This document shows positions 2,091 to 54,575 of a stretch of DNA of 63,261 bases, one piece after another. The translations under genes were made by a program, and so were the position numbers. The notes under the pieces are model-generated. The model ran no database searches. It was not told the origin of the DNA and worked only from the letters and a program-made list of their open reading frames with translations. Every line of letters begins with the position of its first letter. The first letter of the stretch is position 1. The stretch comes from an uncultured bacterium (GTDB lineage Bacteria > Auribacterota > Erginobacteria > Erginobacterales > Erginobacteraceae), in the NCBI GenBank assembly GCA_937885075.1, contig CAKZYZ010000333.1, positions 1-63,261 of the forward strand, read 5' to 3'.

Positions 2091-4334
2091 ATGATCCTTC
2101 CTTCTCCCCAAAACAACAGCACTCACGCCGAGGTGATCCTGAACCTCAAGGCCGATCTCTGCCTCACCTACACAGTCCCGGAAGAATTAATCCGCCGCCT
2201 GCGGGTTGGACACATGGTCCTGGTCCCTCTGGGCTCCCGCCGGGTGAATGGCTTTGTTACGCTCTTCCCCGCTCCTCCTCCCCGGCGCCCGGGCAGGTCG
2301 ATTATCCGCTTGCTTGACCCGGAACCATTCTTTGGAGATAACCTTATCTCATTGGTACGCTGGATCTCCCAGTATTACTTCTGTTCATTTTCCCGGGCGT
2401 TCAAGACCGCGCTTCCCTCTCCGATCAGGAATACCAGTAATCCATCCCCGGTTCTCCATGTCGCCCTTAATATCTCGGTGGAGGAATCCGGAGAAGAGAT
2501 AGAGAAGTTGGCCGGAAAGGCCCCGCGCCAGGCCGATATACTGAAGGTTCTCCAGGGGAGGACCGGGACCAGCCCGCTCGCGGCCGTTCTGAAGGAATCC
2601 GGGGCGTCCCGGAGTTCATTGACCGCGCTGGAGAAGAAAGGACTGGTAGTCATAAGCCAGGAGGATAGATATACCTCCGGAAGACCGGGCGAAGAGATAC
2701 TGCCTACCGGTCCTCTTGTTCTCAATGATGAACAGAAAGTCGCCTTCAAAGAGATCGTTGACGCAATCGATAATGAGGAGTTCAGGGTATTCCTCCTCCA
2801 CGGGATTACCGGGAGCGGAAAGACCGAGATATATCTCCAGGCGGTCGCCCGGGTGCTGGAGCGGGGGGAGGGAGCGATTATCATGGTCCCGGAGATATCC
2901 CTCACTCCGCAGACCGGGGAACGGTTCCGGTCCCGGTTTGGAGACCAGGTAGTTGTTATCCACAGCGCCCAGGCGGCGGGTGAGCGTTATTCCGCCTGGC
3001 GCCGGTTGGCTGATGGTCGGGCCCGGATTGTCCTCGGGCCCCGTTCCGCTGTCTTCGCTCCGGTAAAAAATCTGGGGTTGATAGTTGTCGATGAAGAGCA
3101 TGAGACTTCATATAAGCAGTCCGCGATCCATCCGTTTTATCATGGCCGCGATGTGGCGGTGATGCGGGGGAAACTGGAGAATTGCCCGGTAATTTTAGGG
3201 TCGGCCACGCCGTCAGTGGAGAGTTATAACAATCAGCGGGAGGGGAAGTATTCTCTCCTGACTCTCTCCCATCGTCCCGATGAGGCGGAACTCCCGAAGG
3301 TCAGGATTATTGATATGCGTCTCGAGCGGGAGAAGTTCCGCGGCGGGAGTTCCTTCTCTTCTATTCTTCTTCGAGAGATGAAGCTGAACCTGGAGGAGGG
3401 AAGGCAGACAATCCTCTTTTTAAACCGGAGAGGTTTCTTTACCGTCCTGGTCTGCCGGGAATGCGGATATGTCGCCCGGTGCCCGCATTGCAGTGTCTCT
3501 CTCACCTACCATAAAGGCAAACGTTTGCAGATATGCCATCTCTGCGGTTATACCGCTGCCCCGGACCGGAGCTGCCCGCTCTGCAAGTCGAAAGATATCA
3601 CCTTCTCCGGGAGGGGAACCCAGAGGATAGAAGAGCAGATAAAGAAGATATTTCCCCAGGCCCGGGTTCGGAGGATGGATACCGACTCGGTCGGCGCCAG
3701 GGATTCTCATCGGATTATACTTGATGAATTCAAAGCGGGCCGGATTGATATTCTGGTCGGTACCCAGATGATCGCTAAGGGACTGGATTTTCCCAATGTG
3801 ACCCTGGTCGGTGTGATCATGGCCGATACCGCGCTCTCCCTCGCGGATTTTCGGGCCACCGAGTACACCTTCCAGATCCTTTCCCAGGTCGGCGGTCGGG
3901 CGGGGAGGGGGGAACTGAAAGGGACGGTTATTATCCAGACCAATTCCCCCCGCCATCCCGCCCTTCTCTCCGCGGTCCGGCACGATTACGCTGCTTTCTT
4001 CGATCAGGAGATCGCTCTCCGGGCCGAACTGGGATATCCCCCTCTCAATCACTTCATCAGCCTGACGGTTCTCTCCCGCAACGAAGATAAGAGTCTCCGG
4101 ATCTGCGAGCATCTTGCCCGCCTCTTAAGGCCCGTGATGGCCCCGGAAGATGAGATCATGGGCCCGGCTCCACCCCCGATCAACCGGATCAGGGGAAGAT
4201 ACCGCTGGCAGCTCCTCTTAAAGACTCACGGGGTGGTATCCACTCTCAGGGCTCTGGGTCAGGTGCTGCCCGGACTGGGAAAAGACCGGGACGTTAAAAT
4301 TGAAGTGGATGTCGATCCCATTTCCATGCTCTGA
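2091..4334 (+). CDS. priA: Primosomal protein N' (replication restart helicase PriA)
   Basis: 747 aa. Walker A GITGSGKT, DEEH box (VVDEEHE), and the Cys-rich zinc region CRECGYVARCPHCSVSLTYH..CHLCGY..CPLC. Confidence 0.95.
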   Translation: MILPSPQNNSTHAEVILNLKADLCLTYTVPEELIRRLRVGHMVLVPLGSRRVNGFVTLFPAPPPRRPGRSIIRLLDPEPFFGDNLISLVRWISQYYFCSFSRAFKTALPSPIRNTSNPSPVLHVALNISVEESGEEIEKLAGKAPRQADILKVLQGRTGTSPLAAVLKESGASRSSLTALEKKGLVVISQEDRYTSGRPGEEILPTGPLVLNDEQKVAFKEIVDAIDNEEFRVFLLHGITGSGKTEIYLQAVARVLERGEGAIIMVPEISLTPQTGERFRSRFGDQVVVIHSAQAAGERYSAWRRLADGRARIVLGPRSAVFAPVKNLGLIVVDEEHETSYKQSAIHPFYHGRDVAVMRGKLENCPVILGSATPSVESYNNQREGKYSLLTLSHRPDEAELPKVRIIDMRLEREKFRGGSSFSSILLREMKLNLEEGRQTILFLNRRGFFTVLVCRECGYVARCPHCSVSLTYHKGKRLQICHLCGYTAAPDRSCPLCKSKDITFSGRGTQRIEEQIKKIFPQARVRRMDTDSVGARDSHRIILDEFKAGRIDILVGTQMIAKGLDFPNVTLVGVIMADTALSLADFRATEYTFQILSQVGGRAGRGELKGTVIIQTNSPRHPALLSAVRHDYAAFFDQEIALRAELGYPPLNHFISLTVLSRNEDKSLRICEHLARLLRPVMAPEDEIMGPAPPPINRIRGRYRWQLLLKTHGVVSTLRALGQVLPGLGKDRDVKIEVDVDPISML

Positions 4335-4380
4335 AGTATTCTCTGCCGGTCCGGCAGAGAATATTTCAGAGCATGGAAAT
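4320..4380 (+). terminator. ~30-bp near-perfect palindrome spanning the priA stop codon
   Basis: ATTTCCATGCTCTGAAGTATTCTCTGCCGG / CCGGCAGAGAATATTTCAGAGCATGGAAAT. The left arm includes the last 5 priA codons. There is no clean T-tract. Confidence 0.55.
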
Positions 4381-4505
4381 GATATGATTTATGGATCTAA
4401 AATCCCACTGATTCAGTTAGCAGTTGGATATCCCACAAGATAGCCTCCGTCTCTTATGTGGCCTACTTGATAAAATATTAATTGATGAAATTAATGAAAT
4501 TCGCA

Positions 4506-4535
4506 TTGACATTTATGCGTTATCTAAATTAGGAT
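4506..4535 (+). promoter_or_regulatory. Candidate sigma-70 promoter of the repeat-protein gene
   Basis: TTGACA (4506-4511), 18-nt spacer, TAGGAT (4530-4535, followed by AAT). About 45 nt upstream of ATG 4579. Confidence 0.4.
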
Positions 4536-4578
4536 AATATCATTGATATAGATATACTGGCACTGAAAAGGAGAAAGC

Positions 4579-5943: not shown

Positions 5944-7884
5944 ATGGCTAAAGTAATCGGAATAGATTTAGGAACTACTAATTCATGTATGGCTGTAATG
6001 GAGGGGAATGACCCCAAGGTCATCCCGAATGCCGAAGGCAGTCGGGTAACCCCTTCCGTTGTCGCCTTCACCAAGACCGGGGAGCGGCTGGTCGGTCAGC
6101 CCGCCAAGCGCCAGGCGATCACCAACTCGGCCAATACCATCTTCTCCATCAAGCGTTTTATGGGAAGGAGATTCGAGGAGGTTCAGTCCGAGATTAAACT
6201 GGTCCCCTACAAAGTAATCAAAGCCGACAACGGCGACGCCCGGGTAGAGGTCGAGGGAAAGATATATTCCCCGCCTGAGATCTCCGCGATGATTCTGCGG
6301 AAGATGAAGCAAGACGCAGAATCCCACCTCGGCGATAAGGTGACTGGAGCGGTCATCACCGTACCGGCTTACTTCAATGACAGTCAGCGCCAGGCCACCA
6401 AGGACGCCGGGAAGATCGCCGGCCTCGAGGTCCCCCGTATCATCAATGAGCCGACCGCTGCCGCTCTGGCCTATGGGCTGGATAAGAAGAAAGACGAGAT
6501 GATCGCTGTCTTCGACCTCGGTGGAGGTACCTTTGACATCTCGATCCTGGAGATAGGAGAAGGCGTTTTCGAGGTCAAGTCCACCAATGGAGATACTCAC
6601 CTGGGTGGCGACGACTTCGACCAGAGGATCATCGACTGGATCGCCGAGGAGTTCAAGAAAGATCAGGGGATCGACCTGAAGCAGGATCCGATGGCGATCC
6701 AGCGGCTGAAAGAAACCGCCGAGAAGGCCAAGTGTGAGCTCTCCAGTACCATGGAGACGGAGATCAACCTCCCGTTTATCACCGCGGACGCGGCCGGACC
6801 AAAACACCTTTCGATGAAGTTGACCCGGGCCAAGCTGGACCAGCTTTGCGATGACCTGATCGAGCGGACCAAGAGCCCCTGTGAGAAAGCCCTGAAGGAT
6901 GCCGGGTTGAAGAAGGACCAGATCGATGAGGTGATTCTGGTCGGCGGGATGACCCGGATGCCCGCGGTTCAGGAGATGGTCAAGAATCTCTTCGGAAAAG
7001 ATCCCCACAAGGGGGTCAACCCGGACGAGGTAGTCGCGATCGGCGCCGCCGTCCAGGCCGGTGTGCTGGCGGGGGATGTTAAGGATGTTCTGCTTCTGGA
7101 CGTAACGCCACTCTCTCTCGGTATTGAGACATTAGGTGGAGTAATGACCCGCCTGATCGATCGTAACACTACCATCCCCACCAAGAAGAGCGAGATATTC
7201 TCCACCGCCGCCGACAGTCAGACCCAGGTAGAGATCCATGTCCTCCAGGGAGAACGGGAGATGGCCTCCGCCAATCGCACGATCGGAAAGTTTCATCTGA
7301 CCGGCCTTCCGCCCGCGCCCCGCGGTGTTCCTCAGATTGAGGTATCATTCGATATCGATGCCAACGGCATATTGAATGTCACCGCCAAGGATCTCGGCAC
7401 CGGGAAGGAGCAGAATATCACCATCACCGCTTCCAGCGGTCTCTCGGATAACGAGGTAGAGAAGATGGTGAAAGACTCCGAGCAGCATGCCGATGAAGAT
7501 AAGAAACTCCGGGAAGCGGTTGATGCCAAGAACCAGGGTGACGCGGCGGTATATCAGACCGAGAAACTTTTGAAGGAGAATGAAGAGAAGATCAGCGCGG
7601 ACTCCAAAGCTAAGATTGAAGCCGCGATCGAGCGCCTGAAAGAGGCTCTGAAGAAAGAAGACGGGGCTGAGATCAAGTCCGCCACCGATGACCTCAATCA
7701 GGCCTGGCATTCCGTCAGCGAGGAGATGTATAAGCAGGCAACCGCCGCCTCCGCTGATCCCCAGGGAGCGCCCGGAGCTGATGCCGGCCCTCAGACCCCC
7801 TCCCCGGGGACCGAAGCAGGCTCCGCTCCGGAAGGCGAAGTAATCGACGCCGAGTTCGAGGTAGAAGACGAGGAGAAGAAATAA
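5944..7884 (+). CDS. dnaK: Molecular chaperone DnaK (Hsp70)
   Basis: 646 aa. [17 protein letters not shown] and [11 protein letters not shown] motifs. AGGAGG SD. Confidence 0.98.
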
Positions 7885-7995
7885 ATCAGGATATCAGGGA
7901 ATCAGGATACCAGAATATCAGGATATCAGGGGATCAGGCCAGGCTTGGCTAACCTGATATCCTGATCCCCTGATATCCTGATTATCTGATATTCT
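7885..7995. repeat. Family C word-palindrome (RNATCAGG octamers)
   Basis: The left arm (7885-7937) starts at the base after the dnaK stop. Centre CCAGGCTTGGCTAA. Right arm of CCTGAT words at 7953-7995. Confidence 0.9.
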
Positions 7996-14133: not shown

Positions 14134-14152
14134 TTAGCGCCGGAGGCGCTAA
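14134..14152 (+). promoter_or_regulatory. Leader palindrome TTAGCGCC-GGA-GGCGCTAA, 5 nt before the GT2 ATG
   Basis: Perfect 8-bp stem. No SD between it and ATG 14158. Confidence 0.8.
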
Positions 14153-15282: not shown

Positions 15283-15345
15283 CCCGCCTTTTTGCCTTTA
15301 CTTTGCAAGCTAATATTAGTATCTCTTAACCCGATTTATCTTGGG

Positions 15346-15395
15346 GCGTTAGTTTTAGTGCACTTTCACTAAGTTAGCGCCGAAGGCGATAACTT
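15346..15395 (+). promoter_or_regulatory. Full ~50-nt leader cassette ending at the ATG of 15396
   Basis: GCGTTAGTTTTAGTGCACTTTCACT + AAGTTAGCGCC-GAA-GGCGATAACTT, followed directly by ATG. No SD. Confidence 0.8.
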
Positions 15396-16445
15396 ATGAA
15401 TGACGCAATTAAAAAGAAGTTATTTTTATTTATCCGGCTGGTGGTCAGCTTCGGGTTAATCGGATATATATTTTATTCCCTTTATGCCGCAGGAAAATTG
15501 AGCGAGCTGCCGGATTATTTTGCCTCGGCCAATTACTGGTGGCTGCTGGCGGCGGCATTTCTTCTGCTCGGACTTCTGGCGGCTGGTTCTTTGCGATGGG
15601 GGATGATTCTGGGAGCCCAGGGAATTCATCTGAGTCGTATCAGCGTATTTATGTACTATATGATCGGGATGTTCTTAAATAATTTTCTCCCCAGCACCGT
15701 GGGAGGGGATTTCGTCAAGGCGTACTATCTCTCCAAGGCTACTGGAAAAACCGCGGGTTCATTTATCTCCGTTCTGGTGGATAGATTGATGGGGATGGGG
15801 GGCCTCTGCGTGGTGGCGGTGGCGGCCTGCCTCCTGGGGGGAGTAAATCTCTGGCAAAATCCTGATACCCATTCCTACGCGCTCCCCATCTTTTTAATTG
15901 TGGGGGGAGTTACCTGCGGCCTCGGGCTATTTTTCCTGGTGGTATTCAATGATCGGGTCATGAATTTATTCCTGAAGCTGGCCCGCCGGGGAAAGATCGG
16001 AGAGAAGATAAAAGAGTTTCATCAGTCGATGTATATATATAAAGGGCACGGGAAAGTCCTCCTCCTGACGTTACTGATTTCGACATTGATCTGGGTGGTG
16101 ATAGTCCTGGTCTCCTGGATGGCCTATATGGCGTTTCATACCGGGGGAGAACCCGGTCTGCCCGGGCATATAGCGGCAATACCGATCCGATACTTCTATA
16201 TTTTCCTGCCGGTAATATCGGTTATTATGTCACTCCCTATCTCATTCGCCGGTCTCGGGATCCGGGAAGGGGTTTTTATCAAGTTGTTTGACACTCTCCC
16301 CGGAATAAGTGATGTCGATGCCTTGATTATATCGCTGACATTTTATTTTGTATTTTTATTCGTCTCCCTGATTGGAGGAGTAATATATATTTTCAAAGAT
16401 AAACTACGCGTGCACCGTGATATTATTTTTCCTGTGGAAAAATAA
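15396..16445 (+). CDS. Flippase-like / lysylphosphatidylglycerol-synthase TM-domain protein (UPF0104)
   Basis: Polytopic membrane protein with LRWGMIL..FLNNFLPSTVGGDFVKAYYL, typical of this family. Confidence 0.8.
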   Translation: MNDAIKKKLFLFIRLVVSFGLIGYIFYSLYAAGKLSELPDYFASANYWWLLAAAFLLLGLLAAGSLRWGMILGAQGIHLSRISVFMYYMIGMFLNNFLPSTVGGDFVKAYYLSKATGKTAGSFISVLVDRLMGMGGLCVVAVAACLLGGVNLWQNPDTHSYALPIFLIVGGVTCGLGLFFLVVFNDRVMNLFLKLARRGKIGEKIKEFHQSMYIYKGHGKVLLLTLLISTLIWVVIVLVSWMAYMAFHTGGEPGLPGHIAAIPIRYFYIFLPVISVIMSLPISFAGLGIREGVFIKLFDTLPGISDVDALIISLTFYFVFLFVSLIGGVIYIFKDKLRVHRDIIFPVEK

Positions 16446-18534: not shown

Positions 18535-18698
18535 ACAGTGAGCAGTGAATAAACGGTAAGCAGTAAGCAGTTAGCGGTGAGCAGTGAATAAACGGTAAGC
18601 AGTTAGCAGTGAGCAGTAGGCCGCCGACGGCGACCTGGCGGCCACAGCTTACTGCTTACTGCTCACTGCTTACCGTTTATTCACTGCTCACTGCTTAC
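18535..18698. repeat. Family B word-palindrome (GTAAGCR/GTGAGCR heptamers)
   Basis: Left arm 18535-18617 with an internal ~42-nt duplication. Centre AGGCCGCCGACGGCGACCTGGCGGCCACA. Right arm 18648-18698, ending 9 nt before the rfbD ATG. Confidence 0.9.
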
Positions 18699-18707
18699 TA
18701 TATCTTC

Positions 18708-19583
18708 ATGCGAAGTAGAGATATATTGAATACAGAAAGAAAAATCTTGGTAATAGGAAATAATGGATTACTCGGGCAGGAGTTGATGGTCCGATTAGGC
18801 CCTCCGGGGCAGGTTACCGGGGCGGATCTCGATACCTGTGATATTACCAGGCCGGAGCAGATTGCGGCGGTGCTTAATTCTACCCGGCCGGATTGGGTAA
18901 TTAATTCCGCGGCCTATACCGATGTAGATGGGTGTGAGTCCAATTATGAGACAGCGAGGGCGATAAATGTTGTCGGAGCGGGGAATCTGGCCCGGGCCTG
19001 TCGGGATCGTGATATTGGACTCGTCCAGCTCAGCACGGACTTCATCTTCGATGGTAAGAAGGGGCGGGAATATAATGAGGATGATCAGCCCGCGCCACTC
19101 AGTGTTTACGGTGAGACTAAGTTAGAGGGGGAGCGGGAGGTGATAAAGGTAGGGGGAAGATATATTATTGTTCGGACATCCTGGCTTTTTGGAAAGGGCG
19201 GCAGAAATTTTCCGGATACTATTCTAAAAGCAGCCCGATCAAGCGATTCATTGCGGGTGGTCTCGGATCAGACCGGATCCCCGACTTACGCGGTCGATCT
19301 GGCGGACGCGATAGGAGAGTTAATTCGAAAAGACGCCAGCGGAGTTGTTCATGTAACCAATCGGGGAAGCTGCTCCTGGGCGGAATACGCGGATTTTGTT
19401 ATCAAGCTATCAGGGTTGGAGACAAAAATTATTCCGGTATCTTCGGAGGAGATGAAACGTCCCGCTGTCCGGCCGGGCTTCTCAGTTCTTTCTCTGAAAA
19501 AGTATGAAATGATAACCGGCAGGAAGACACGCCCCTGGCAGGACGCGGTCAAATCTTATTTTTCCTCCGGAAAAATAAAATAA
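18708..19583 (+). CDS. rfbD: dTDP-4-dehydrorhamnose reductase
   Basis: The ORF track starts at 18609, inside the right arm of a family-B palindrome. ATG 18708 gives MRSRDILNTERKILVIGNNGLLG. YGETK motif present. Confidence 0.9.
   Translation: MRSRDILNTERKILVIGNNGLLGQELMVRLGPPGQVTGADLDTCDITRPEQIAAVLNSTRPDWVINSAAYTDVDGCESNYETARAINVVGAGNLARACRDRDIGLVQLSTDFIFDGKKGREYNEDDQPAPLSVYGETKLEGEREVIKVGGRYIIVRTSWLFGKGGRNFPDTILKAARSSDSLRVVSDQTGSPTYAVDLADAIGELIRKDASGVVHVTNRGSCSWAEYADFVIKLSGLETKIIPVSSEEMKRPAVRPGFSVLSLKKYEMITGRKTRPWQDAVKSYFSSGKIK
19556..19578. repeat. AT-hairpin family copy inside the rfbD 3' end
   Basis: TTATTTTTCC-TCC-GGAAAAATAA. It encodes the last residues (YFSSGKI). Followed by TTGTGCAAGCA, as in the 16449 copy. 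Confidence 0.8.
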
Positions 19584-19658
19584 AGAAATTGTGCAAGCAC
19601 TGGAATAACGCCCGGGATACACTTTGAAGTAAGGCTATTGTTCAAAACAGTTAGCGCC

Positions 19659-19680
19659 ACAGGGCTAACTTATAGGAGGA
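19659..19680 (+). promoter_or_regulatory. Degenerate leader palindrome upstream of trm112
   Basis: AGTTAGCGCC-ACA-GGGCTAACT. Here it is followed by an AGGAGG SD. Confidence 0.6.
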
Positions 19681-19918: not shown

Positions 19919-20042
19919 GCCACAAAGGCACGAAGACACTAAGAAAACTCAGGAAATAAGAAGATACGTAGTCATTGAACCTTCAATTCTTTTCTTTGTG
20001 TCTTAGTGTCTTCGTGGCAAAAAAAAGTTGCGAAGCTAAGTT
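19919..20042 (-). mobile_element. Family G MITE-like element, copy 1
   Basis: GCCACAAAGGCACGAAGACACTAAG .. CTTTGTGTCTTAGTGTCTTCGTGGC + AAAAAAAAGTTGCGAAGCTAAGTT. Ends 2 nt before the aroQ ATG. Confidence 0.75.
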
Positions 20043-24890: not shown

Positions 24891-26183
24891 ATGACTATAA
24901 TATCAGAAGCAAAGAAAGGAAACGTACCGGAACCGGTAGCAATAGTAGCCCGTGAGGAGGGTGTTCCTCCGGAAGATATTCTCAAAGGTCTGGTGGATGG
25001 AACAATTGTGGTTCCTTCTAACCGCGTACGCCCTATCGATCAGCCCTGTGGAATCGGTCAGGGGCTCAGGGTCAAGATCAACGCTAATCTGGGAACTTCA
25101 CAGCAGGAGATCGATTATGACGGAGAGATAGAGAAGCTGAAAGTCGCTATCTCCGCCGGAGCGGATACCGTAATGGACCTCTCGACCGGCGGCGATATCA
25201 ATTTGCTCCGGGAAAAAGTCCTGCTTACCTCCAGCGTGCCGGTCGGAACTGTTCCGATCTATGAAGCCGCGGTGAAAGCCAGCGAGGAGAAGGGAAAGAT
25301 AGTGGCAATGACCGGAGACGATATGCTGGCGGCGGTAGAGAATCAAGCCCGACAGGGGGTTGATTACATGACCATTCACGCCGGAGTTACTCTCCGGACC
25401 ATGGAGGTTCTGAAAAATTCTCCCAGGTTGCTCGGGGCGGTCAGCCGGGGAGGTTCATTTCTGCTGGAATGGATGATTGTCAACGGGAAGGAGAATCCGT
25501 TCTTTGAACGTTTTGATGAACTGCTCGATATAGTCCGGCGTTACGAGATTACTCTCAGTCTCGGCGATGGGATGCGTCCGGGATGTCTGGCCGATGCCAC
25601 GGATCGTCCCCAGATTCAGGAACTTATTTTTCTGGGAGAACTGGCGGCCCGCTGCCGGGAAGCTGAGGTCCAGGTGATGATCGAGGGGCCGGGGCATATC
25701 CCCCTCAACCAGATCGCCGAGAATATTCGGCTGGAGAAATCTCTCTGCCAGGGCGCTCCCTTCTATGTCCTGGGACCGCTGGTAACCGATGTCGCCCCGG
25801 GATATGACCATATCACCTGCGCCATCGGGGGAACTCTGGCCGCCTACCTGGGCGCGGATTTTCTCTGCTATGTTACTCCGTCCGAGCACCTGGGCCTGCC
25901 GTCAGTAGATGACGTAAAAGCCGGCGTGATAGCCACGCGGATCGCGGCTCATGCCGCTGATGTCGCCCGAGGCTTACCCGGTGCCCGTGATTGGGATGAC
26001 AGGATGTCGCGATTCCGCCAGGCCAGGGATTGGAAGGGGCAGGTGGCGACCGCGATTGATCCGGAGAAGGCAAGGTCGTATCTGGGAGAACTGGAAGATA
26101 AGGAAGATTACTGTTCGATGTGCAGTGAGTACTGCGCGATTAAAATTTTGGATGAGTACCTGGGTGGGGGCGGGAAGCAGTGA
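24891..26183 (+). CDS. thiC: Phosphomethylpyrimidine synthase ThiC
   Basis: 430 aa. ..MDLSTGGD..TIHAGV..GIVSRGG-like..C-terminal CSMCSEYC cluster. The last codons and stop lie in a family-B arm. Confidence 0.95.
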   Translation: MTIISEAKKGNVPEPVAIVAREEGVPPEDILKGLVDGTIVVPSNRVRPIDQPCGIGQGLRVKINANLGTSQQEIDYDGEIEKLKVAISAGADTVMDLSTGGDINLLREKVLLTSSVPVGTVPIYEAAVKASEEKGKIVAMTGDDMLAAVENQARQGVDYMTIHAGVTLRTMEVLKNSPRLLGAVSRGGSFLLEWMIVNGKENPFFERFDELLDIVRRYEITLSLGDGMRPGCLADATDRPQIQELIFLGELAARCREAEVQVMIEGPGHIPLNQIAENIRLEKSLCQGAPFYVLGPLVTDVAPGYDHITCAIGGTLAAYLGADFLCYVTPSEHLGLPSVDDVKAGVIATRIAAHAADVARGLPGARDWDDRMSRFRQARDWKGQVATAIDPEKARSYLGELEDKEDYCSMCSEYCAIKILDEYLGGGGKQ

Positions 26184-26301
26184 GCAGTTAGCAGTGAGCA
26201 GTAAGCAGTAAGCTGTGCCCCGGTCGGCGACCGCTTACCGCTTACTGTTTACCGCTTACAGTTTTACAGCTTACAGCTTACCGCTCACTGCTTACCGTTA
26301 C
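26175..26301. repeat. Family B word-palindrome
   Basis: The left arm AAGCAGTGAGCAGTTAGCAGTGAGCAGTAAGCAGTAAGC begins in the last two thiC codons. Centre TGTGCCCCGGTCGGCGAC. The right arm (26232-26301) is longer than the left. Confidence 0.9.
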
Positions 26302-26352
26302 TCCCATGGATATAATTTTAGATCATTGGATAAATATAATAGTAAGGAGGGT

Positions 26353-27866: not shown

Positions 27867-28379
27867 GTGACTAAGAATCAGAAAACATCGCGAAACAAAA
27901 TTCTCTGGGCGCCGTGGCGGATTAGATACATCCTTGATGAGAAGGAAGACGGATGTCTATTCTGTAATAAAGCCCAGAGTGATGATGATCTGAATAACCA
28001 TGTCATCGCCCGTAGTGAACATAGCTACGCTCTCCTCAATATATATCCGTATAATAGCGGCCATATGATGGTTGCCCCATATCGCCATACGGCGGAACTG
28101 GAGAATTTGCCGGCGGAGGAAGTTTCCGACCTGATGCTGCTGGTGCAACGCTCGATCAAAGCCCTGAAAGAGACAATGGAGCCGGAGGGGTTCAATGTCG
28201 GGCTTAATCTGGGACGTTCCGCCGGGGCGGGGGTGGTGGATCATCTGCATATTCATATTGTACCGCGCTGGCAGGGGGATACGAACTTCATGCCGGTTAT
28301 TTCTGATACAGATGTTGTGCCTCAATCCCTTGATGCTGCCTGTAGCCTCCTGCGGGAAGCTATGGATAAAAGAACTTAG
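27867..28379 (+). CDS. HIT family protein
   Basis: GTG start. Histidine triad HLHIHIVPRW. N-terminal WAPWRIRYI. The TAG stop lies inside family-G element copy 2. Confidence 0.85.
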   Translation: MTKNQKTSRNKILWAPWRIRYILDEKEDGCLFCNKAQSDDDLNNHVIARSEHSYALLNIYPYNSGHMMVAPYRHTAELENLPAEEVSDLMLLVQRSIKALKETMEPEGFNVGLNLGRSAGAGVVDHLHIHIVPRWQGDTNFMPVISDTDVVPQSLDAACSLLREAMDKRT

Positions 28380-28523
28380 CTTCGCAAGTTTTTTTGCCAC
28401 TAAGACACAAAGACACAAAGAAAATATTTCAAGATGCAATAACAACGTTTTTTATTCTTTCCTAAGGTTTTCTTAGTGTCTTTGTGCCTTTGTGGCAGAT
28501 TTATTGGAATTTCGGAGCAGGGA
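28373..28523 (+). mobile_element. Family G MITE-like element, copy 2
   Basis: AACTTAGCTTCGCAAGTTTTTTT + GCCACTAAGACACAAAGACACAAAG .. CTTAGTGTCTTTGTGCCTTTGTGGC + AGATTTATTGGAATTTCGGAGCAG. The interior is about 80% identical to copy 5. Confidence 0.8.
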
Positions 28524-28571
28524 GTTAGCTTAGCAATATTGTAGTTTGATCGCGGGAAAATCCATCAAACA

Positions 28572-28620
28572 GCGATAATTTCAGTGTACTTCCAATAAGT
28601 TAGCGCAAAGCGCTAACTTA
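28572..28620 (+). promoter_or_regulatory. Leader cassette copy upstream of the LysM promoter
   Basis: GCGATAATTTCAGTGTACTTCCAA + TAAGTTAGCGC-AAA-GCGCTAACTTA (perfect 11-bp stem). This is the only copy not adjacent to a start codon. Confidence 0.75.
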
Positions 28621-28624
28621 CAGC

Positions 28625-28653
28625 TTGACAGCGATTGTTTAGAACAATATCAT
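28625..28653 (+). promoter_or_regulatory. Candidate sigma-70 promoter of the LysM gene
   Basis: TTGACA (28625-28630), 17-nt spacer, TATCAT (28648-28653). Confidence 0.5.
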
Positions 28654-28697
28654 AACCACAAAATATGGAATTTGGATGTTTGATGAGGAGATTATTG

Positions 28698-29283: not shown

Positions 29284-29580
29284 AGGAAAGTAATCAGTAA
29301 ACAGTGATCAGTAATCAGTAGAAAAGCAAATAAACAGTAATCAGTACCGAAGGAAAGTAATCAGTAAACAGTGGTCAGTAATCAGTACCGAAGGAAAGTG
29401 ATCAGTAATCAGTACAGCTACGCTTGGCCAACTGATCACCGATTACCGATTACCGATCACCGATTACCGATCACCGATCACCGATCACCAATCACCGAGT
29501 ACTGATTACTGATCACCGATTACTGATCACCAGTTACAGGTTACCTTTCAAATCGTCCTGTCCCAAAATCGTCTTGTCAG
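29284..29580. repeat. Largest family D word-palindrome (arms ~130 and ~115 nt) followed by reverse H words
   Basis: Left arm 29284-29414 (units GGAAAGTAATCAGTAAACAGTGRTCAGTAATCAGTACCGAA). Centre AGCTACGCTTGGCCAA. Right arm 29432-29546 (CCGATCACCGATTACC..). Then AAATCGTCCTGTCCCAAAATCGTCTTGTCAG. Confidence 0.9.
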
Positions 29581-30554: not shown

Positions 30555-30700
30555 ATCTGCATCAAAATGTGAATAAAATTGCCACAAAGGCACTAAGACA
30601 CTAAGGAATAAACAGGAAATAAGAAAAACGTAGTTATTACATCGGTAATTCTTTTATTTGTGTCTTTGTGACTTAGTGGCAAAAAATTGCGAAGCTAAAT
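30555..30700 (-). mobile_element. Family G MITE-like element, copy 3
   Basis: GCCACAAAGGCACTAAGACACTAAGG .. TTTGTGTCTTTGTGACTTAGTGGC + AAAAAATTGCGAAGCTAAAT. Ends 5 nt before the pgpH ATG. Confidence 0.75.
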
Positions 30701-30705
30701 GCAGA

Positions 30706-32958
30706 ATGATCAAGATATCATTTAAAAAGAAAGGGGAAGATGGCCGCCCCCGGAGCAAGAAGAGGAAGGTAGCCGAGGGGGGGAAGATCGCCCGGGCATT
30801 GGAGAGCGGTATCTCCGGGAGATGGGCATTGGGGGCGGGTATCTTCATCGCAAGCGTTTTAATCATCTCCTGGCGGGGTATGCCACTGGATATTCCAATT
30901 ATCGGCCAAATCTCCGAGCGTGATGTTGCGGCAACCTGTTCCTTTTCATTCCCTGACCGGATTAAGACCGAGCAGGCCCGGGATATAGCCGAGGACCATC
31001 AGCCGGTTGCCTATCTGGTTGTTCAGACCGTTTTAGAGGAGAAGGGAAATGCCTTGCGGCATTTCTTCCGCCGGTTATCGGGAGAATCAATACCCGTTAA
31101 GGCTCCTCCGCTGGATCTGGTATTAATCCCCCCGGATCGGCTTCTGCGAGATTATTTAAATACTGTTATTCCCCGGCCGTGGGAAGAAAAATTCCTTCAC
31201 ATCCTGGAAGACGCGTATCGCAATGGCATCCTTACCTCTGATATTAAGCGGACGCTCTCTAATACTCGCCAGGATGAGATCATGCTGGTTAATCCAGGAA
31301 CGAACGAAGATCGGATAATCTCGATCTCCGAAATCCCCGAACTCTCATCCTGCCGGGCTGCCGTGGCAAAGCAGGTGGAAGATAATATTGTGATGGGAGG
31401 GAGTGCTGTAGACGGACTGGGAGAAGTTATCCGGTGGTTCATCGAGCCCGACCTTGAATTTGATCTGGAGAAGACGGAAGCACTGAGATCGTCCGCCCGG
31501 AGCGATATCCCGGTTATTATGACTGAGGTAAGGAAAGGCGAGAAGATTATCCGCCAGGGGGAGGAGGTCCGGTCGATTCATATCCAGAAATTTCGTTCCT
31601 ATCAGGAGCAGCTCTTCCGGCTTGAACCGCCGATCTCATTACTGTATTATGCGCTTGGAAATGGTCTTCTGGTCGCTCTTTTATTTATAATTGCTATCTA
31701 CTATCTGGATCATTATCATCGGGAGATCAGCCGGAGTAATTCCCGGTTGCTTCTTATCTCAACAGTGATAGTTCTGGTTCTTCTCCTGACCCGTCTGCTC
31801 CGCCAGGCCTTCTGGCATCTTCCCCCCGGGATGATGGAGTTTACCCGCTATATATCGCCGGTGACAATTGGAACGATGCTGCTCTGCTTGCTGGTCAGTG
31901 TGCGGGTAGCGATATTTTTTACGCTGATTCTCTCTCTTCTCATCGGCCTTATTCTTGGGGGCGGACCAGGGTACATAGTTGTGGTGATTATCGGGTCAAT
32001 TGCCGGGATCTTCGGGCTGAGCGGTGCCCGGAGGAGGATTGACCTCTTTCGGGCCGGACTGATCTCGGCCGCGGCTGGTTTTCTGGCGGTGGCCGGACTG
32101 GGAGTTGCCGGAGGGTTAGGACTGACCGTATTTATTGTTCAGGGGATTGGTGCTGCTTCCGCCGGAATCCTCTCGGCATTTTTTACGCTGATTGCTCTGG
32201 GATTATTTGAGTCTCTCTTCCGGATCTCTTCGGATATTGGTCTTCTGGAACTCTCCGATCTCAATCATCCGCTTCTGCGCCGGTTGATGATCCGGGCGCC
32301 CGGGACATATCATCACGGCCTGATGGTGGCAACTCTGGCGGAAGGTGCCGCCGAAGAGATCGGTGCCAACGCGTTGCTGGCCAGGATCGGGGCATATTTT
32401 CATGATATCGGCAAGATCACGAAGCCGGAATATTTCTCTGAGAACGAGACCTCAGGATTTAGCCGGCATGATGCCCTGATCCCGAGCATGAGTAGTCTGA
32501 TTCTGATCGCCCATGTGAAGGAAGGGGTGGATCTGGCCCGCCAGTACAAACTGGATCGCCGGATTGTCGCTATTATCCAGCAGCATCACGGGACCAGTCT
32601 GATTTCCTGTTTTTATGACCGGGCCGGGAGGAATCACCAGCTGAAGTTTGATGTTATGGAAAAAGATTACCGGTATCCCGGTCCCCGGCCGAAGAGCCGG
32701 GAAGCGGCAATTGTCATGATGGCCGATGCCGTGGAAGCAGCCTCGACCTCCCTGGATCGGCGTACTCCCAGCCGGTTGGAATCTCTGGTTGAAAATATTA
32801 TTCGGGAGCGTTTTTCCGATGGACAGTTGGATGAATGCAGATTGACCATGGTGGATCTGAGAAAGATCGGAGAGAGCTTTGTCCGACTGCTATCGGCGAG
32901 ATATCATACCAGGGTTAAGTATCCGGAGGTGGGGAATGGGGGGGGGGGTAAGCAGTGA
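30706..32958 (+). CDS. pgpH: 7TM-HD membrane phosphohydrolase (PgpH/YqfF family)
   Basis: Extracellular N-domain, 7 TM helices, and a C-terminal HD domain (HHGLMVA..FHDIGK..HH). The ORF-track start at 30658 lies inside family-G copy 3. The last codons and stop lie in a family-B arm. Confidence 0.9.
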   Translation: MIKISFKKKGEDGRPRSKKRKVAEGGKIARALESGISGRWALGAGIFIASVLIISWRGMPLDIPIIGQISERDVAATCSFSFPDRIKTEQARDIAEDHQPVAYLVVQTVLEEKGNALRHFFRRLSGESIPVKAPPLDLVLIPPDRLLRDYLNTVIPRPWEEKFLHILEDAYRNGILTSDIKRTLSNTRQDEIMLVNPGTNEDRIISISEIPELSSCRAAVAKQVEDNIVMGGSAVDGLGEVIRWFIEPDLEFDLEKTEALRSSARSDIPVIMTEVRKGEKIIRQGEEVRSIHIQKFRSYQEQLFRLEPPISLLYYALGNGLLVALLFIIAIYYLDHYHREISRSNSRLLLISTVIVLVLLLTRLLRQAFWHLPPGMMEFTRYISPVTIGTMLLCLLVSVRVAIFFTLILSLLIGLILGGGPGYIVVVIIGSIAGIFGLSGARRRIDLFRAGLISAAAGFLAVAGLGVAGGLGLTVFIVQGIGAASAGILSAFFTLIALGLFESLFRISSDIGLLELSDLNHPLLRRLMIRAPGTYHHGLMVATLAEGAAEEIGANALLARIGAYFHDIGKITKPEYFSENETSGFSRHDALIPSMSSLILIAHVKEGVDLARQYKLDRRIVAIIQQHHGTSLISCFYDRAGRNHQLKFDVMEKDYRYPGPRPKSREAAIVMMADAVEAASTSLDRRTPSRLESLVENIIRERFSDGQLDECRLTMVDLRKIGESFVRLLSARYHTRVKYPEVGNGGGGKQ

Positions 32959-33085
32959 GCGGTGAGCAGTAAGCGGTAAGCAGTGAGCAGTAAGCGGTAA
33001 GCAGTTAGCGGGGAGCATTCGGCGTAGCCTCGCCAGCGACACCGCTTACCGCTTACTGTTTACTGCTTACCACTTACCACTTACT
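32947..33085. repeat. Family B word-palindrome
   Basis: The left arm GGTAAGCAGTGAGCGGTGAGCAGTAAGCGG.. starts in the last pgpH codons. Centre GGGGAGCATTCGGCGTAGCCTCGCCAGCGACA. Right arm 33042-33085. Confidence 0.9.
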
Positions 33086-33736: not shown

Positions 33737-34495
33737 TTGGCTCCGCAAAAAACCACAGGAATTATTATCCAGGTTCGTGATTATTCGGAGACCAGCATGC
33801 TGGTCAATATTCTCACATCAGACTCCGGGCTCCTGAAGACCATAGCCAAAGGATCTCGCCGGTTGAAGAGTCCGCTTCGCGGGAAACTGGAACTCCTTAA
33901 CTATGGCGCGCTGGTCTATTACCCGAGCCGGACGAGTGACCTTCATATCCTCTCTCAATTTGATATTATCAATTCTTTTCCGGAGGCATTAAACACATTG
34001 GAGAGATCGGCCTTCTTTCATTATCTGGCGGAACTCTCGTCTTTAGCCGCCTATGGGGAGGAAGGTAGCGGAGCATTATTTAATCTCTTGCTGCAAATGC
34101 TTGGAGACGCCCCCGATATAGATGCTATTATTCCGGCTCGATTATGGTTTGAAATCCGCTATCTCCATCTGCTGGGAGTATTCCCATCGTTTGACCGCTG
34201 TAGCCATTGCGGCGGGCCGTTGGGGGATGGTGTTAAATTCGCGCTTAAGAAACCGGGCTGGATCTGCGCGCGCTGCCGTGGTCAGGTGAGTGATACAATA
34301 GATATCGAACCGGGAGTAATGGCTATTATCAGTTATATTCTTAGAAATAGTCTGAATCAGGTAATGAAACTCAAGCTCTCCCGCCGGCAATCGGCTCTTC
34401 TGGATCGTTTATTATCTTATCTCGTTGACACCGCCGCGCATAAAAAGATAAAGTCGAAACGCTTCTTAAACCATATTTTAGGAGGGGGAATTTAA
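33737..34495 (+). CDS. recO: DNA repair protein RecO
   Basis: TTG start. OB-fold N-domain and Cys4 zinc motif CSHCG..CARC. The TAA stop lies inside family-G copy 4. Confidence 0.88.
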   Translation: MAPQKTTGIIIQVRDYSETSMLVNILTSDSGLLKTIAKGSRRLKSPLRGKLELLNYGALVYYPSRTSDLHILSQFDIINSFPEALNTLERSAFFHYLAELSSLAAYGEEGSGALFNLLLQMLGDAPDIDAIIPARLWFEIRYLHLLGVFPSFDRCSHCGGPLGDGVKFALKKPGWICARCRGQVSDTIDIEPGVMAIISYILRNSLNQVMKLKLSRRQSALLDRLLSYLVDTAAHKKIKSKRFLNHILGGGI

Positions 34496-34630
34496 CTTCG
34501 CAACTTTTTTGCCACTAAGACACTAAGACACAAAGAAAATAAGAGATGTAATATCTCCATTATTCTTTTTATTATTATTTCTTAGTGCCTTTGTGTCTTT
34601 GTGGCAGAGTTATTAAAATTCCGAAGACGA
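34493..34630 (+). mobile_element. Family G MITE-like element, copy 4
   Basis: TTTAACTTCGCAACTTTTTT (contains the recO TAA) + GCCACTAAGACACTAAGACACAAAG .. CTTAGTGCCTTTGTGTCTTTGTGGC + AGAGTTATTAAAATTCCGAAGACG. Ends 5 nt before the glyQ ATG. Confidence 0.8.
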
Positions 34631-37982: not shown

Positions 37983-38119
37983 GGTAAGCAGTAAGCGGTG
38001 AGCGGTAAGCAGTAGGCTGCGCATTGGCAGTGACTGCTTACTGCTTACCGCTTACCGCTTACTGTTTACTGCTTACCGCTTACCGCTCACTGTTCACCGC
38101 TTACCGCTTACTGCTTACC
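37983..38119. repeat. Family B word-palindrome, strongly asymmetric
   Basis: Left arm 37983-38013 (31 nt). Centre AGGCTGCGCATTGGCAGTGA. Right arm 38034-38119 (86 nt). Confidence 0.9.
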
Positions 38120-41263: not shown

Positions 41264-42136
41264 ATGCCTTCCCCTCCCTCCAACGGAAGTTCTAATTTGA
41301 CTCCGGACCGGAAAGTCCGGGCTATCAGGATCTACCTTCGGGAGATCGGGGCGATCCCTCTCTTAAGCAGAGAAGAAGAGATTAAGCTGGCTGAGAAGTT
41401 CGCCCGGGGTGATGAAGAGGCCCGCCGTCAGCTGATCCGTGCCAATCTTCGGCTGGTAGTCAAGATATCCAAGAAGTATGAGCATCTGGGACTCCCCTTA
41501 CTGGATCTGATTGAAGAGGGGAATCTTGGCCTGGTCAAGGGAGTGGAGAGGTATGATTTAAGTAGGGGGACCAAGGTGAGTACTTATGCCGCCTGGTGGA
41601 TAAAACAGTCGATAATGCGGGCCCTGGCCAACAAAGGCAAGATAATCCGCATCCCTGTCTATATGCAGGAGAGGGTCAACTCATTCAGGCGGAAAGTTGG
41701 TGAGTTGAGTCAGAAACTGGGGCGCCAACCATCCCACCAGCAGATCTCAAAAGAGTTGGATATGACCCTTGAAGAAATAGATTATCTGAATGAAGTTGCC
41801 CGTGTCCCCAGTTCATTGGATGCCGCCATTGACCATGATGGGTTCAGCAAGCTGGCTGATATGATTCAGGATACCAACTCTCCCGCCCCGGATGAGATAG
41901 TGGATACAGCCGACCTTCACCGGGATCTGCTTGGATTGATCCAGTTACTCCCTCCGCGGGAGATTAAAATTCTTCAGATGAGATTCGGGTTGGATGGGGA
42001 GGAATCCCGGACGCTCTCCTACATAGGCAATGAGTTCGGTATCAGCCGGGAACGGGTGCGGCAGATCATCAATAAGTCCAACCGCAGACTCAGGAATACT
42101 CTCCGGGAACGGGATGAGGGGGACGGAAGGAAGTAA
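41264..42136 (+). CDS. RNA polymerase sigma-70 family factor (regions 1.2-4)
   Basis: IYLREIG..LLSREEE, NLRLVVKISKKY, DLIEEGNLGLVKGVERYD, STYAAWWIKQSI, C-terminal HTH GISRERVRQI. Confidence 0.9.
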   Translation: MPSPPSNGSSNLTPDRKVRAIRIYLREIGAIPLLSREEEIKLAEKFARGDEEARRQLIRANLRLVVKISKKYEHLGLPLLDLIEEGNLGLVKGVERYDLSRGTKVSTYAAWWIKQSIMRALANKGKIIRIPVYMQERVNSFRRKVGELSQKLGRQPSHQQISKELDMTLEEIDYLNEVARVPSSLDAAIDHDGFSKLADMIQDTNSPAPDEIVDTADLHRDLLGLIQLLPPREIKILQMRFGLDGEESRTLSYIGNEFGISRERVRQIINKSNRRLRNTLRERDEGDGRK

Positions 42137-42217
42137 TCAGTAATCGGTTATCGGTAATCAGTACGCCTCACTTTGGTAACCAGGCCAACTGATTACCGAT
42201 TACCGTTTACTGATTAC
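42131..42217. repeat. Family D word-palindrome
   Basis: The left arm AAGTAATCAGTAATCGGTTATCGGTAATCAGT contains the sigma-factor stop. Centre ACGCCTCACTTTGGTAACCAGGCCAA. Right arm CTGATTACCGATTACCGTTTACTGATTAC. Confidence 0.9.
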
Positions 42218-42274
42218 TTTCTCCTTTAAATTGTCTTGTCAAATAAGTTATAAAGTTAAGCTAAGGAGGCCAGA

Positions 42275-43657: not shown

Positions 43658-43856
43658 CAGGACGATTGCAGATAGGACGATTAAAAGCAAAAGAATTTAG
43701 ACAGGACGATTGCAGTCAGGACGATTAAAGGAAAAATGCTTCGAGGTGAGGCAAATAGTCTTGTCTGTAATGGTTCTGTCATAAAAAAGAGGGTGAGGTG
43801 GGGGGGGAATTGTTTTATCCCAAAATCGTCTTGTCAAAAAAGTTGCAAAGCTAAAT
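43658..43856 (+). repeat. Family H composite element, forward copy
   Basis: CAGGACGATT words at 43658-43728. Reverse words AATAGTCTTGTCTGTAATGGTTCTGTCAT. Then AAAAAAGAGGGTGAGGTGGGGGGG, then CCCAAAATCGTCTTGTCAAAAAAGTTGCAAAGCTAAATT. Confidence 0.85.
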
Positions 43857-43878
43857 TCATAAAATCTATTATCTAATA

Positions 43879-46125: not shown

Positions 46126-46131
46126 CAGATT

Positions 46132-51636: not shown

Positions 51637-51637
51637 A

Positions 51638-54540: not shown

Positions 54541-54575
54541 ATAGATATTATAGATAGAGAAAAAATTAACAGAAG

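Follow-up and report, generated by a model that had tools for sequence, protein, structure and literature searches.

A dispersed hairpin cassette at the start codons of unrelated genes in a Candidatus Auribacterota lineage

In the 63,261-nucleotide (nt) stretch of uncultured bacterial DNA analysed here (contig CAKZYZ010000333.1, hereafter called “the window”), we identified a family of short cassettes, each with a core of ~50–65 nt and a terminal hairpin that often abuts a start codon. Seven copies occur in the 63 kb window, all of them on the + strand: four are full cassettes, and three consist of the hairpin only. About one in eight of the window genes carries a cassette, ribosomal protein genes included. 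As an earlier note on this DNA had proposed, the cassette is tied to the 5′ ends of functionally unrelated genes (those for L13, S9, ArgC, IlvC and PBP2, among others). What the sequences show directly is how the cassette is built, where it stands relative to starts, how its strands differ, how it was inserted, and that a Shine-Dalgarno (SD)-like motif is linked to abutting starts. Our favoured interpretation, to which we give an even chance, is that the cassette is a dispersed, portable 5′-leader and translation-initiation module acting as RNA. In this module, the hairpin may set or regulate ribosome access or mRNA stability, and an upstream element—hereafter called “box A”—would be a competing partner for the 5′ arm of the hairpin.

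Anatomy of the cassette and its position at start codons

The covariance model R1, which describes the hairpin only and was built from alignment A1, returned exactly seven sites when the window was searched with the filters off (54595, 15365, 48481, 28591, 19642, 54084 and 14126), and each of them scores higher on the + strand. Two 23-nt segments, the core of the hairpin and the left half, are each matched three to four times in the window, as compared to 0.00 expected from shuffled sequences, and the cassette recurs in related metagenome and metagenome-assembled genome (MAG) contigs. The family is thus real and non-random, and the four full cassettes reported previously were all located.

How is the full cassette built? 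At 15345–15395 (+), the “type I” cassette begins with box A (GGCGTTAGTTT, 15345–15355) and a 15-nt connector (15356–15370), followed by the hairpin with the 5′ arm AAGTTAGCGCC (15371–15381), the loop GAA (15382–15384), and the 3′ arm GGCGATAACTT (15385–15395), within which a G·A mismatch occurs. The ATG of a gene with an LPG_synthase_TM domain (“flippase-like”) follows at 15396, without a single intervening nucleotide. The ortholog of this gene in L144—L-numbers denote the related loci that we compared with the window—retains the cassette, and the orthologous cassette is better conserved than the neighbouring coding start. At 48461–48511 (+), box A (48461–48471) precedes the 5′ arm TAGTTAGCGCC (48487–48497), the loop GAA (48498–48500), and the 3′ arm GGCGATAACTA (48501–48511), and the outermost pair is compensated from A-U to U-A (48487/48511). 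This cassette lies in a divergent intergenic region and runs into the ATG at 48512 of a gene encoding a 211-residue secreted hypothetical protein. The type I cassette at 54575–54625 (+) fills the spacer between rplM and rpsI, with box A at 54575–54586, the 5′ arm at 54601–54611, the loop GGA at 54612–54614, and the 3′ arm GGCGCTAACTT at 54615–54625. The sequence GGAGG spans its apex, and the rpsI ATG lies three nucleotides past the stem (54629).

The fourth full cassette, at 28571–28619 (+), has a shorter stem (AAGTTAGCGC-AAA-GCGCTAACTT, 28597–28619) without the RAGG motif, and it is not adjacent to a start. It ends 5 nt 5′ of a promoter, TTGACA (28625–28630)-17-TATCAT (28648–28653), which separates it from the ATG of a LysM gene at 28665, 45 nt away; the ortholog in L174 has the same layout. 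In this layout (28625–28667), the LysM ATG stands 11 nt after the promoter −10 element.

The three hairpin-only copies reported previously also exist. The core at 14134–14152 (+) reads TTAGCGCC-GGA-GGCGCTAA, with GGAGG across the apex, and is followed by GCTAAGTTCT and the ATG of a GT2 gene at 14158. On its left lie tandem 16–17-nt TTCAACG repeats, a “type IV” module also present in L107, L125 and L048. The sequence GCTAAGTTCT also occurs 5′ of the argC SD in L192. The variant hairpin at 54090–54116 (+), AAATTAGCGACC-AAA-GGGAGCTAATTT, has a type II-like left flank (TTTTTCAAAACTA), a compensated pair changed from G-C to A-U (54092/54114), and AAGGGAG across its apex, and the rplM ATG follows at 54118. 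The third hairpin, CAGTTAGCGCC-ACA-GGGCTAACTT with the type II-like left flank TTGTTCAAAAC, had been placed at 19659–19680. It actually occupies 19648–19671 (+), and is followed by the canonical SD AGGAGG (19674–19679) and the ATG of a Trm112-like gene at 19686. Five window copies abut start codons as previously described, whereas the 28571 copy does not.

In order to extend the family, we pooled the window with at least 120 contigs (0.9 Mb) obtained by a metagenome pattern scan, which gave at least 172 hairpin sites; all copy numbers outside the window are lower bounds, counted among the matches listed. The left half is of the window type (“type I”) at 86 sites, 75–76 of them non-redundant, and of the TTCAAAACT type (types II and III) at 48 sites; at the remaining 38 the left flanks are of other kinds, among them the tandem TTCAACG repeats seen at the window GT2 gene. 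The hairpin consensus is AAGUUAGCGCC, a three-base loop that is mostly GNA, and GGCGMUAACUU (M = A/C). A pattern scan of the GTDB genomes listed mostly unrelated GTTAGCGC palindromes in other phyla, and also found the full cassette with a start codon 0–3 nt past the stem in the MAGs DRR093004_bin.59 and MFD02416.bin.2.262, and a hairpin with a type II-like left flank in Ca. Erginobacter occultus. Both collection scans fixed most of the arm sequence, and the sample is accordingly skewed toward arms that fit the search pattern. Furthermore, the copies and loci share descent and are not phylogenetically independent; the p-values therefore overstate independence and are indicative only.

The window itself matches the marine-metagenome MAG GCA_011041085.1. 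The nearest relatives of its GroEL and S9 proteins are named Ca. Euphemobacter frigidus, Ca. Erginobacter occultus, Auribacterota, and “PVC group bacterium”, and the lineage is therefore assigned by sequence to Candidatus Auribacterota, Erginobacteraceae or close by, within the PVC group and not the FCB group. A Cloacimonadota origin, with promoters of a Bacteroidota-like logic, had been considered first, and was rejected in view of these relatives and of the lack of TAnnTTTG enrichment.

The position relative to start codons is tightly constrained. With downstream open reading frames (ORFs) of at least 60 residues, the distance from the stem end (..AACTT) to the ORF start is 0–4 nt in 47 of the 76 non-redundant type I copies (62%): 19 at 0 nt, 7 at 1, 3 at 2, 14 at 3, and 4 at 4. 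In the opposite orientation no copy has a start at this distance (0/76), and random positions give 3.5%, so that the bias toward starts suspected from the window holds outside it. A further 16 of the 76 have the ORF start at 7–21 nt, mostly behind AAAGGAG-type SDs, and a co-oriented ORF start lies within 120 nt downstream of 68. Type II copies mostly lie 13–25 nt before the ATG, with an ordinary SD in between. The start codons next to the stems are sound. The Pfam domains of L13 and S9 begin at residues 13 and 11, as usual for such proteins, and those of 20 downstream proteins in the related loci begin at residues 2–8. The genes 3′ of the cassettes encode L13, S9, L9, ArgC, IlvC, PanD, aspartokinase, PBP2, CdsA, a PlsC-like protein, TruA, TrkH, PhoH, an XerC-like recombinase, and a sigma-54 response regulator, among others.

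The window genes whose starts abut the stem had been described as lacking an SD. On the contrary, all five start-abutting copies in the window carry an SD-like motif 8–12 nt before the ATG: GGAGG at the GT2 gene and rpsI, GAAGG at the flippase-like gene and the 48512 gene, and GGGAG at rplM. In the family as a whole, the apex and the 3′ arm usually read GAAGG, GGAGG or AAAGG, 9–13 nt before the ATG. Hairpins with RAGG are found at 34 abutting and 6 SD-led starts, while those without it are found at 17 and 17 (odds ratio 5.7, p = 0.002). The type II stems (GCGC-GAA-GCGC) contain no GG, and are usually followed by a true SD. A 16S 3′ end was sought in the fetched loci for an anti-SD check, and none was found there. 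The cassette does not mark one distinct class of initiation regions, as had been suggested, because the hairpin also occurs 3–6 nt 5′ of canonical SDs (AAAGGAG...), in one copy 2 nt before a tRNA-Arg gene, and once 5′ of a promoter.

Strand asymmetry, folding and transcription

Does the cassette act as DNA or as RNA? The two strands of the hairpin are not equivalent. With the downstream ORF as the only guide to orientation, the last base is A in 91 of 97 loops, and 57 of 75 type I loops are GNA, a stable triloop type. A G of the 5′ arm faces an A of the 3′ arm in 37 of the 75 type I copies, and the mirror image of this mismatch was never seen in the same 75 copies, although the scan could have caught it. 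Of the 47 abutting copies 29 have the G·A mismatch, as do 5 of the 13 that are SD-led, whereas none of the 8 copies without an ORF has it. Since both asymmetries follow the direction of the gene, the cassette most likely acts as RNA in 5′ leaders. Consistent with a conserved fold, 96% of the stem cells are paired, and compensated double changes occur in 6 cells, as compared to 0.7 in shuffles. In L183, two cassettes lie on opposite strands, and each faces its own gene.

The location of promoters bears on the same question. The pattern TTGAC-N17–19-TAnnnT is ~4-fold enriched (22 observed, 5.4 expected), and the promoters of the lineage are of the sigma-70 type; tRNA genes have textbook TTGACA-17-TAtnTT promoters. 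In the window, the promoter-like TTGACG-17-TAGCTT at 53937–53965 (+) lies 152 nt 5′ of the rplM ATG, which would place the rplM cassette inside the 5′ leader. This promoter is found 136–152 nt before the ATG in the window, L120 and L138, and a similar one is found in L192. Canonical promoters also precede the whole cassette in L085, L091 and L117, and in L120 a terminator and an extended −10 element (TGTTATAAT) lie 5′ of the argC cassette. Because these consensus promoters lie upstream, we infer that the cassette is transcribed within 5′ leaders. Near-leaderless layouts also exist in the lineage, with TTGACA-17-TAnnnT followed 5–6 nt later by the ATG at at least two loci.

The proposal that the cassette is itself a promoter giving near-leaderless mRNAs, or a palindromic operator for a global dimeric regulator, is one that we regard as very unlikely. 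As a promoter, it would use TAAGTT as the −10 element and AGCGCC as a GC-rich discriminator, and transcription would start at the loop purine to give 12–17-nt leaders. TAAGTT indeed keeps T1, A2 and T6 of the −10 consensus, and in 96% of the type I copies (72 of 75) a purine occupies the first loop position, 7 nt past the hexamer and after a C. A start in the loop would place GRAGG at the 5′ end of a short leader, the tRNA-Arg copy would receive a leader of ~14 nt, like the 10–17 nt of the other tRNAs, and promoters with short or no leaders exist in the lineage. However, the true promoters of the lineage have a strong TTGAC −35 element, while in the conserved part of the cassette neither a −35 element nor a TG extension at workable spacing was found in any left-module class, and a consensus scan called no sigma-70-type promoter inside any cassette. 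The best −35-like hexamer of type I, TTAACT, is 15 bp from TAAGTT, and nothing comparable occurs in types II–V. Moreover, canonical promoters already sit 5′ of the cassette, and the 3′ arm would be needless in a promoter, yet its pairing is kept through compensated changes. As for an operator, stems of 10 and 11 bp both occur (GCGC-N3-GCGC and GCGCC-N3-GGCGC), and the spacing of the half-sites shifts by 2 bp between them, which is harmless to a hairpin and awkward for a dimeric operator; the one-sided mismatch and the loop asymmetry are also unexpected at a symmetric protein site.

Several further identities were considered and rejected. Among 407 upstream regions, the Bacteroidota-type promoter motif TAnnTTTG (at −7, with TTTG at −33) is not enriched: TAnnTTTG was found 54 times against 42.5 expected, and its dyad with TTTG 19–21 bp upstream once against 0.6. 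Read against the sequence, box A and the 3′ arm do not fit sigma-54, sigma-28 or extracytoplasmic function sigma promoters: GG-N10-GC does not occur, and TAAG-N11-GGCGATAA falls 4 nt short of the sigma-28 spacing. On the 3′ side, AACTTA is followed by an ATG or SD, without a U-tract, and 23 of the 67 type I copies, like 23 of the 40 of type II, are situated in divergent intergenic regions; the cassette is therefore not an intrinsic terminator, and true terminators with U-tracts occur elsewhere in the lineage. A reading as an integron attC site was rejected because the arm order and the core sequences are wrong: the arms run GTTAGCG...CGCTAAC, and neither fits RYYYAAC/GTTRRRY.

Box A suggests a second fold for the RNA. 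Box A (GGCGTTARYTT) is a near copy of the 3′ arm, and it is complementary to the 5′ arm in 88.5% of cells, as compared to 30–50% in shifted registers. Its three most variable positions switch only between Watson-Crick and G·U pairs. Folding predicts that the SD-like GG and the AUG are paired within the hairpin, and that the helix can be lengthened across the AUG by the conserved CA.T immediately 5′ of the stem. In copies with the G·A mismatch, the predicted alternative fold, in which box A and an inner stem pair with the 5′ arm and thereby free the 3′ arm and the AUG, is equal to or better than the closed hairpin. An inner connector stem, ARUG/CAYU, covaries in some copies (G-C, A-U); because the commonest combination in type Ib is A·G, it was rejected as a pairing and taken as subfamily structure.

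The type I left half also contains a short reading frame (RTG, 3 codons, TAA) in 56 of 75 copies, including those at 15358–15372 and 54588–54602, whose stop codon forms the first base pairs of the hairpin. A corresponding frame (ATG, 6 codons, TAA) is found in ~18 of 41 type II copies. In the window copy at 48474, the frame crosses the hairpin to a TAA that overlaps the main ATG (TAATG), and several copies have premature stops, or ATA or ATT in place of the start codon. Hence there is only a faint indication that a leader mini-ORF, with its end at the 5′ base of the hairpin, is conserved.

We propose the following arrangement for the favoured portable leader module. The hairpin forms the 5′ edge of the translation initiation region, in one of two layouts. 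In the first, it lies 3–6 nt 5′ of an ordinary SD. In the second, found in most type I copies, the stem ends 0–4 nt before the AUG, and the apex and the 3′ arm would supply the sole SD-like purines (G[G/A]AGG or AAAGG) 9–13 nt upstream, so that the cassette would replace the native SD region of the gene, as at the rplM–rpsI junction. Box A (GGCGUUARYUU) may take the place of the 3′ arm as the partner of the 5′ arm, so that the SD-like purines and the AUG would become accessible, and the G·A mismatch, confined to the 3′ arm, would weaken the closed hairpin and leave the alternative pairing unaffected. Among the options raised at the outset, an RNA-level translational element of this kind is the best fit to the evidence.

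A more specific model, in which type I is a genome-wide two-state translational leader that alternates between the box A/5′-arm fold and the closed hairpin, is in our judgement unlikely. Box A, made first, would pair with the nascent 5′ arm, and GRAGG and the AUG would briefly be free; refolding to the stabler hairpin would then close the initiation site and protect the idle mRNA. Alternatively, the balance between the folds would be shifted by a single trans-acting factor or condition, for example a protein, a small RNA, or temperature. If this model were true, about a tenth of the genes, including those of ribosomal proteins, would be under one post-transcriptional control.

Several observations weigh against an RNA module that governs initiation. 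By folding, the closed form dominates at equilibrium when the coding flank is included, and the probability that the 3′ arm is unpaired is 0.12 in perfect stems and 0.30 in copies with the G·A mismatch. A hairpin of −10 to −16 kcal/mol at the AUG is inhibitory by Escherichia coli rules, which would be odd for rpsI and rplM. G·U pairs outnumber A·C oppositions in the stems just 10 to 6, a weak and undecisive test for RNA, and covariation is thin in the cassette set because the collection scans fixed most of the arm sequence. The location in leaders rests on matches to the promoter consensus, and one conserved copy (28597 in the window, and L174) is 5′ of a promoter and thus outside the leader of that gene. 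Finally, the embedded motif lies 9–13 nt from the ATG, while GGAGG in this lineage peaks at 5–8 nt, and RAGG is absent from 28% of the abutting copies. Because of this long spacing and these RAGG-less copies, an SD embedded within the hairpin is plausible, but not proven.

Alternatively, the hairpin may punctuate or stabilize RNA, either as a site whose 3′ base is cut by an endonuclease, or as a barrier to 5′-to-3′ or 5′-end-dependent decay. Mature RNAs would then start at or just past the hairpin, as leaderless or minimal-leader mRNAs and tRNA precursors. The hairpin always borders a minimal unit on its 5′ side, whether an AUG at 0–4 nt, an SD at 3–6 nt or the tRNA-Arg gene at 2 nt; its stable, self-contained fold with a GNA loop would suit a nuclease barrier; and the leaderless-type promoters (a −10 element followed by ATG at 5–6 nt) show that the lineage translates leaderless mRNAs. 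We nevertheless consider this explanation quite doubtful. Only one of the 10 tRNAs examined has a hairpin, and the start distances are spread over 0–4 nt and not fixed at 0, while leaderless initiation favours a 5′-terminal AUG. Moreover, both the RAGG enrichment at abutting starts and box A would remain without explanation.

Left modules, insertion and loss

Next, we investigated how the cassettes are assembled and distributed. The hairpin is joined to at least five different left modules, and is therefore the constant module of the family. For the same reason it is not the terminus of one other mobile element, as had been considered. The orthologs of the 48512 gene share the same hairpin with left modules of type Ia (L183), type Ib (L133, L139) and type III (L082). 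The window rplM leader is itself composite: an orphan box A-like piece, GGTGTTAATTTTAGTGCAT, lies at ~54006–54024, so that a type I left half is fused to a type II module. When 75 type I copies were aligned together with 95 nt of flank, conservation faded ~9 nt 5′ of box A, and neither terminal inverted repeats nor target-site duplications were visible by eye.

The rplM–rpsI region reveals the history of the cassette most clearly. In L192 (Ca. Euphemobacter), L193 and L195, the two genes are separated by 4–27 nt with an ordinary SD (AAAGGA, AGGAGG), while in the window, L120 and L194 the junction measures 88–190 nt and contains repeats, including the hairpin. No R1 copy was found in L192, L195 or L196. 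Since the relatives have a compact junction with a normal SD, the cassette was inserted at this junction, and from the sequence comparison the compact junctions appear ancestral. Similarly, the rplM leader is ~35–40 nt and cassette-free in L192, and 125–145 nt in the window and L120, with the same promoter; decayed orthologous hairpins precede rplM in L193 and L194. At argC, the window has only a deletion remnant, while L120 and L138 have a full cassette. On the basis of these comparisons—the junction, the rplM leader, the 48512 orthologs, and argC—the sequences indicate that the cassette has been gained, swapped and lost, and that it can replace the native SD region. The mobile-element idea thus fails for a terminus, but holds in the form of an inserted cassette.

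Two other features of L120 concern the same genes. In its rpsI cassette (4327–4361, −), GCACC..GGCAC replaces GCGCC..GGCGC, so that two pairs are broken and not compensated; on one and the same strand, CpG has become CpA in both cases, and GGAGG is kept, as is the ATG three bases past the stem. This decay could reflect deamination at methylated GCGC sites. At the 3′ end of rplM (4497–4556, −), the L120 frame is three codons longer than that of the window, and its TAG stop codon falls within the 5′ arm of a hairpin, AGTTAGTGCC-TAT-GGCGCTAACT, which overlaps the end of the gene and has a TAT loop, not NNA.

Could the cassette simply be a selfish or neutral dispersed repeat—related in kind to miniature inverted-repeat transposable elements (MITEs), REP or PATE—that is tolerated at starts? 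The hairpin would then be a recognition structure in DNA or single-stranded DNA, and the repeat would multiply either through a transposase supplied in trans or through recombination of its copies with one another. The high copy number (seven per 63 kb window, at least 172 sites in the fetched loci), the swapped and composite modules (three left modules among the 48512 orthologs, types I and II combined in the rplM leader), and the gain and loss of copies between genera, with absence from L192, L195 and L196, are all in keeping with such an origin. So are the decayed copies (the L120 rpsI stem, the remnant before the window argC) and a genome crowded with other intergenic repeat families, and GNA loops strongly stabilize DNA hairpins too, as in d(GCGAAGC). 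Even so, we hold this origin alone to be improbable. Random or replication-guided insertion leaves unexplained why 62% of type I copies lie 0–4 nt from a start and most others 3–6 nt from an SD, why 94% of copies are oriented with the gene, and why RAGG at the apex is enriched at abutting starts. In addition, the aligned copies have no terminal inverted repeats or target-site duplications by eye, and conservation of the orthologous copies in the window and L144 exceeds that of the coding start beside them. Being mobile does not preclude having a function.

Other repeats of the lineage and comparison with known systems

Nearly every intergenic region of the window contains an array of 7–9-nt tandem repeats followed by an inverted array, a pair that would fold into a very long hairpin, and several distinct families of tandem units are represented. 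GTAAGCA/GCTTACT arrays lie at 18538–18708, 26175–26302, 32948–33084, 37984–38119 and 56354–56426; AGTAATC arrays at 24230, 29289–29413, 42132–42218 and 60072–60160; GAACGTC arrays at 1218–2077, 21868 and 58698; and ATCAGGAT arrays at 7884–7992 and 51637–51785. The unit GATCACC is repeated 14 times at 29434–29531, and a GATCCGACC array occupies 53205–53268. Like arrays fill the expanded rplM–rpsI spacers of L194 and L196.

Another repeat, the tail of the “G element” (AAAAAAGTTGCGAAGCTAAGTT), contains GCGAAGC, a very stable DNA mini-hairpin, and ends in TAAGTT. It occurs at 20021–20042, 30683–30701 and 43838–43857 on the + strand, and at 55129–55150, 34489–34508 and 28373–28393 on the − strand. 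Like the cassette, this tail had been said to abut starts; it does abut the aroQ ATG (20045), and lies 2–8 nt before the first ATGs near 30703 and 30709, but the three minus-strand copies adjoin no start. A relative of the tail, GAAGGG-TAAGTTCTT-ATG, precedes a molybdopterin dehydrogenase gene at 49363. Furthermore, two unrelated genes have near-identical initiation regions (46117–46131 and 51853–51867): TTTTACGGAGTAAAAATATATG at an aminotransferase gene at 47313 (−), and TTTTACGGAGTAAAAATTATG at the gene of a Fer2 subunit at 51868 (+). These sequences suggest that other short start-region modules are also repeated.

The cassette repeat is new to description. Across the whole window, only a tRNA reached the Rfam gathering score, and permissive Rfam scans across the cassettes gave chance-level matches only (E ≥ 0.8, bit scores far under gathering), so that Rfam holds no matching family. 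We found no description of these repeats in the published literature, and the paper describing the Auribacterota MAGs mentions neither repeats nor hairpins. The cassette provides a compact lineage marker for Auribacterota metagenome contigs. If the favoured interpretation is true, a candidate phylum without a cultured member starts many of its housekeeping genes via a repeated, exchangeable leader module, with SD-like purines that a conserved hairpin in contact with the start codon either presents or conceals. Such a module would be a natural test of ribosome initiation beside a stable helix. It would also affect gene calling and the statistics of SD usage in MAGs, where such genes appear SD-less to standard tools.

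Which known systems does the cassette resemble? The hairpins of ROSE and fourU thermometers, riboswitch platforms and ribosomal protein operators have SD-like purines and the start built into them, as is predicted for the cassette, and box A is predicted to be able to pair with the sequestering arm, like the anti-sequestrator of SD-sequestering leaders. However, those leaders are specific to a gene or regulon and single-copy, while the cassette places the same module on unrelated housekeeping genes. The REP and BIME repeats share with it 20–40-nt GC-rich imperfect palindromes, hundreds of copies, and strand-specific features. REPs, in contrast, are found mainly 3′ of genes or in the gaps between convergent ones, frequently in inverted pairs and in an orientation independent of the neighbour, whereas the type I cassettes are single, lie 5′ of co-oriented ORFs with the orientation of the downstream gene, and have no start at 0–4 nt in the reverse orientation.

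The MITEs Correia (CREE), ERIC, RUP and BOX are also small, abundant intergenic repeats that often lie 5′ of genes, and Correia and other MITEs are co-transcribed and fold in RNA; they can change gene expression, and their insertions are polymorphic between relatives. Nevertheless, MITEs have terminal inverted repeats and a target-site duplication (TA for Correia), neither of which was seen by eye in the cassette; its inverted repeat is a single 11-bp hairpin with a 3-nt loop, and its position at the start codon is far tighter.

The closest known kind, on our best reading by analogy, is represented by REP2 (CREN) of Neisseria meningitidis, together with the Borrelia plasmid IR. These are dispersed repeats without terminal inverted repeats that lie directly 5′ of unrelated ORFs, carry a site for ribosome binding together with an ATG, and have internal inverted repeats predicted as RNA stem-loops (Delihas 2011, PMC3184786). 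Like them, the Auribacterota cassette lies directly 5′ of ORFs and has an SD-like motif, and it ends at or in the start codon, its right end AACTTA running into the ATG. If the favoured interpretation holds, it would enlarge a very small class of translation-signal repeats, so far essentially REP2 and the Borrelia IR. The differences are substantial. REP2 has its own promoter and a conventional, unstructured ribosome-binding site, whereas the cassette has no promoter in its conserved part, and its SD-like purines are placed within the apex of a hairpin whose upper stem is GC-rich and which touches the AUG. The cassette also belongs to another phylum, differs in sequence and size, and has modular left halves. 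Finally, REP2 defines a contact regulon of 14 genes, while the cassette is carried by about one in eight genes of the window.

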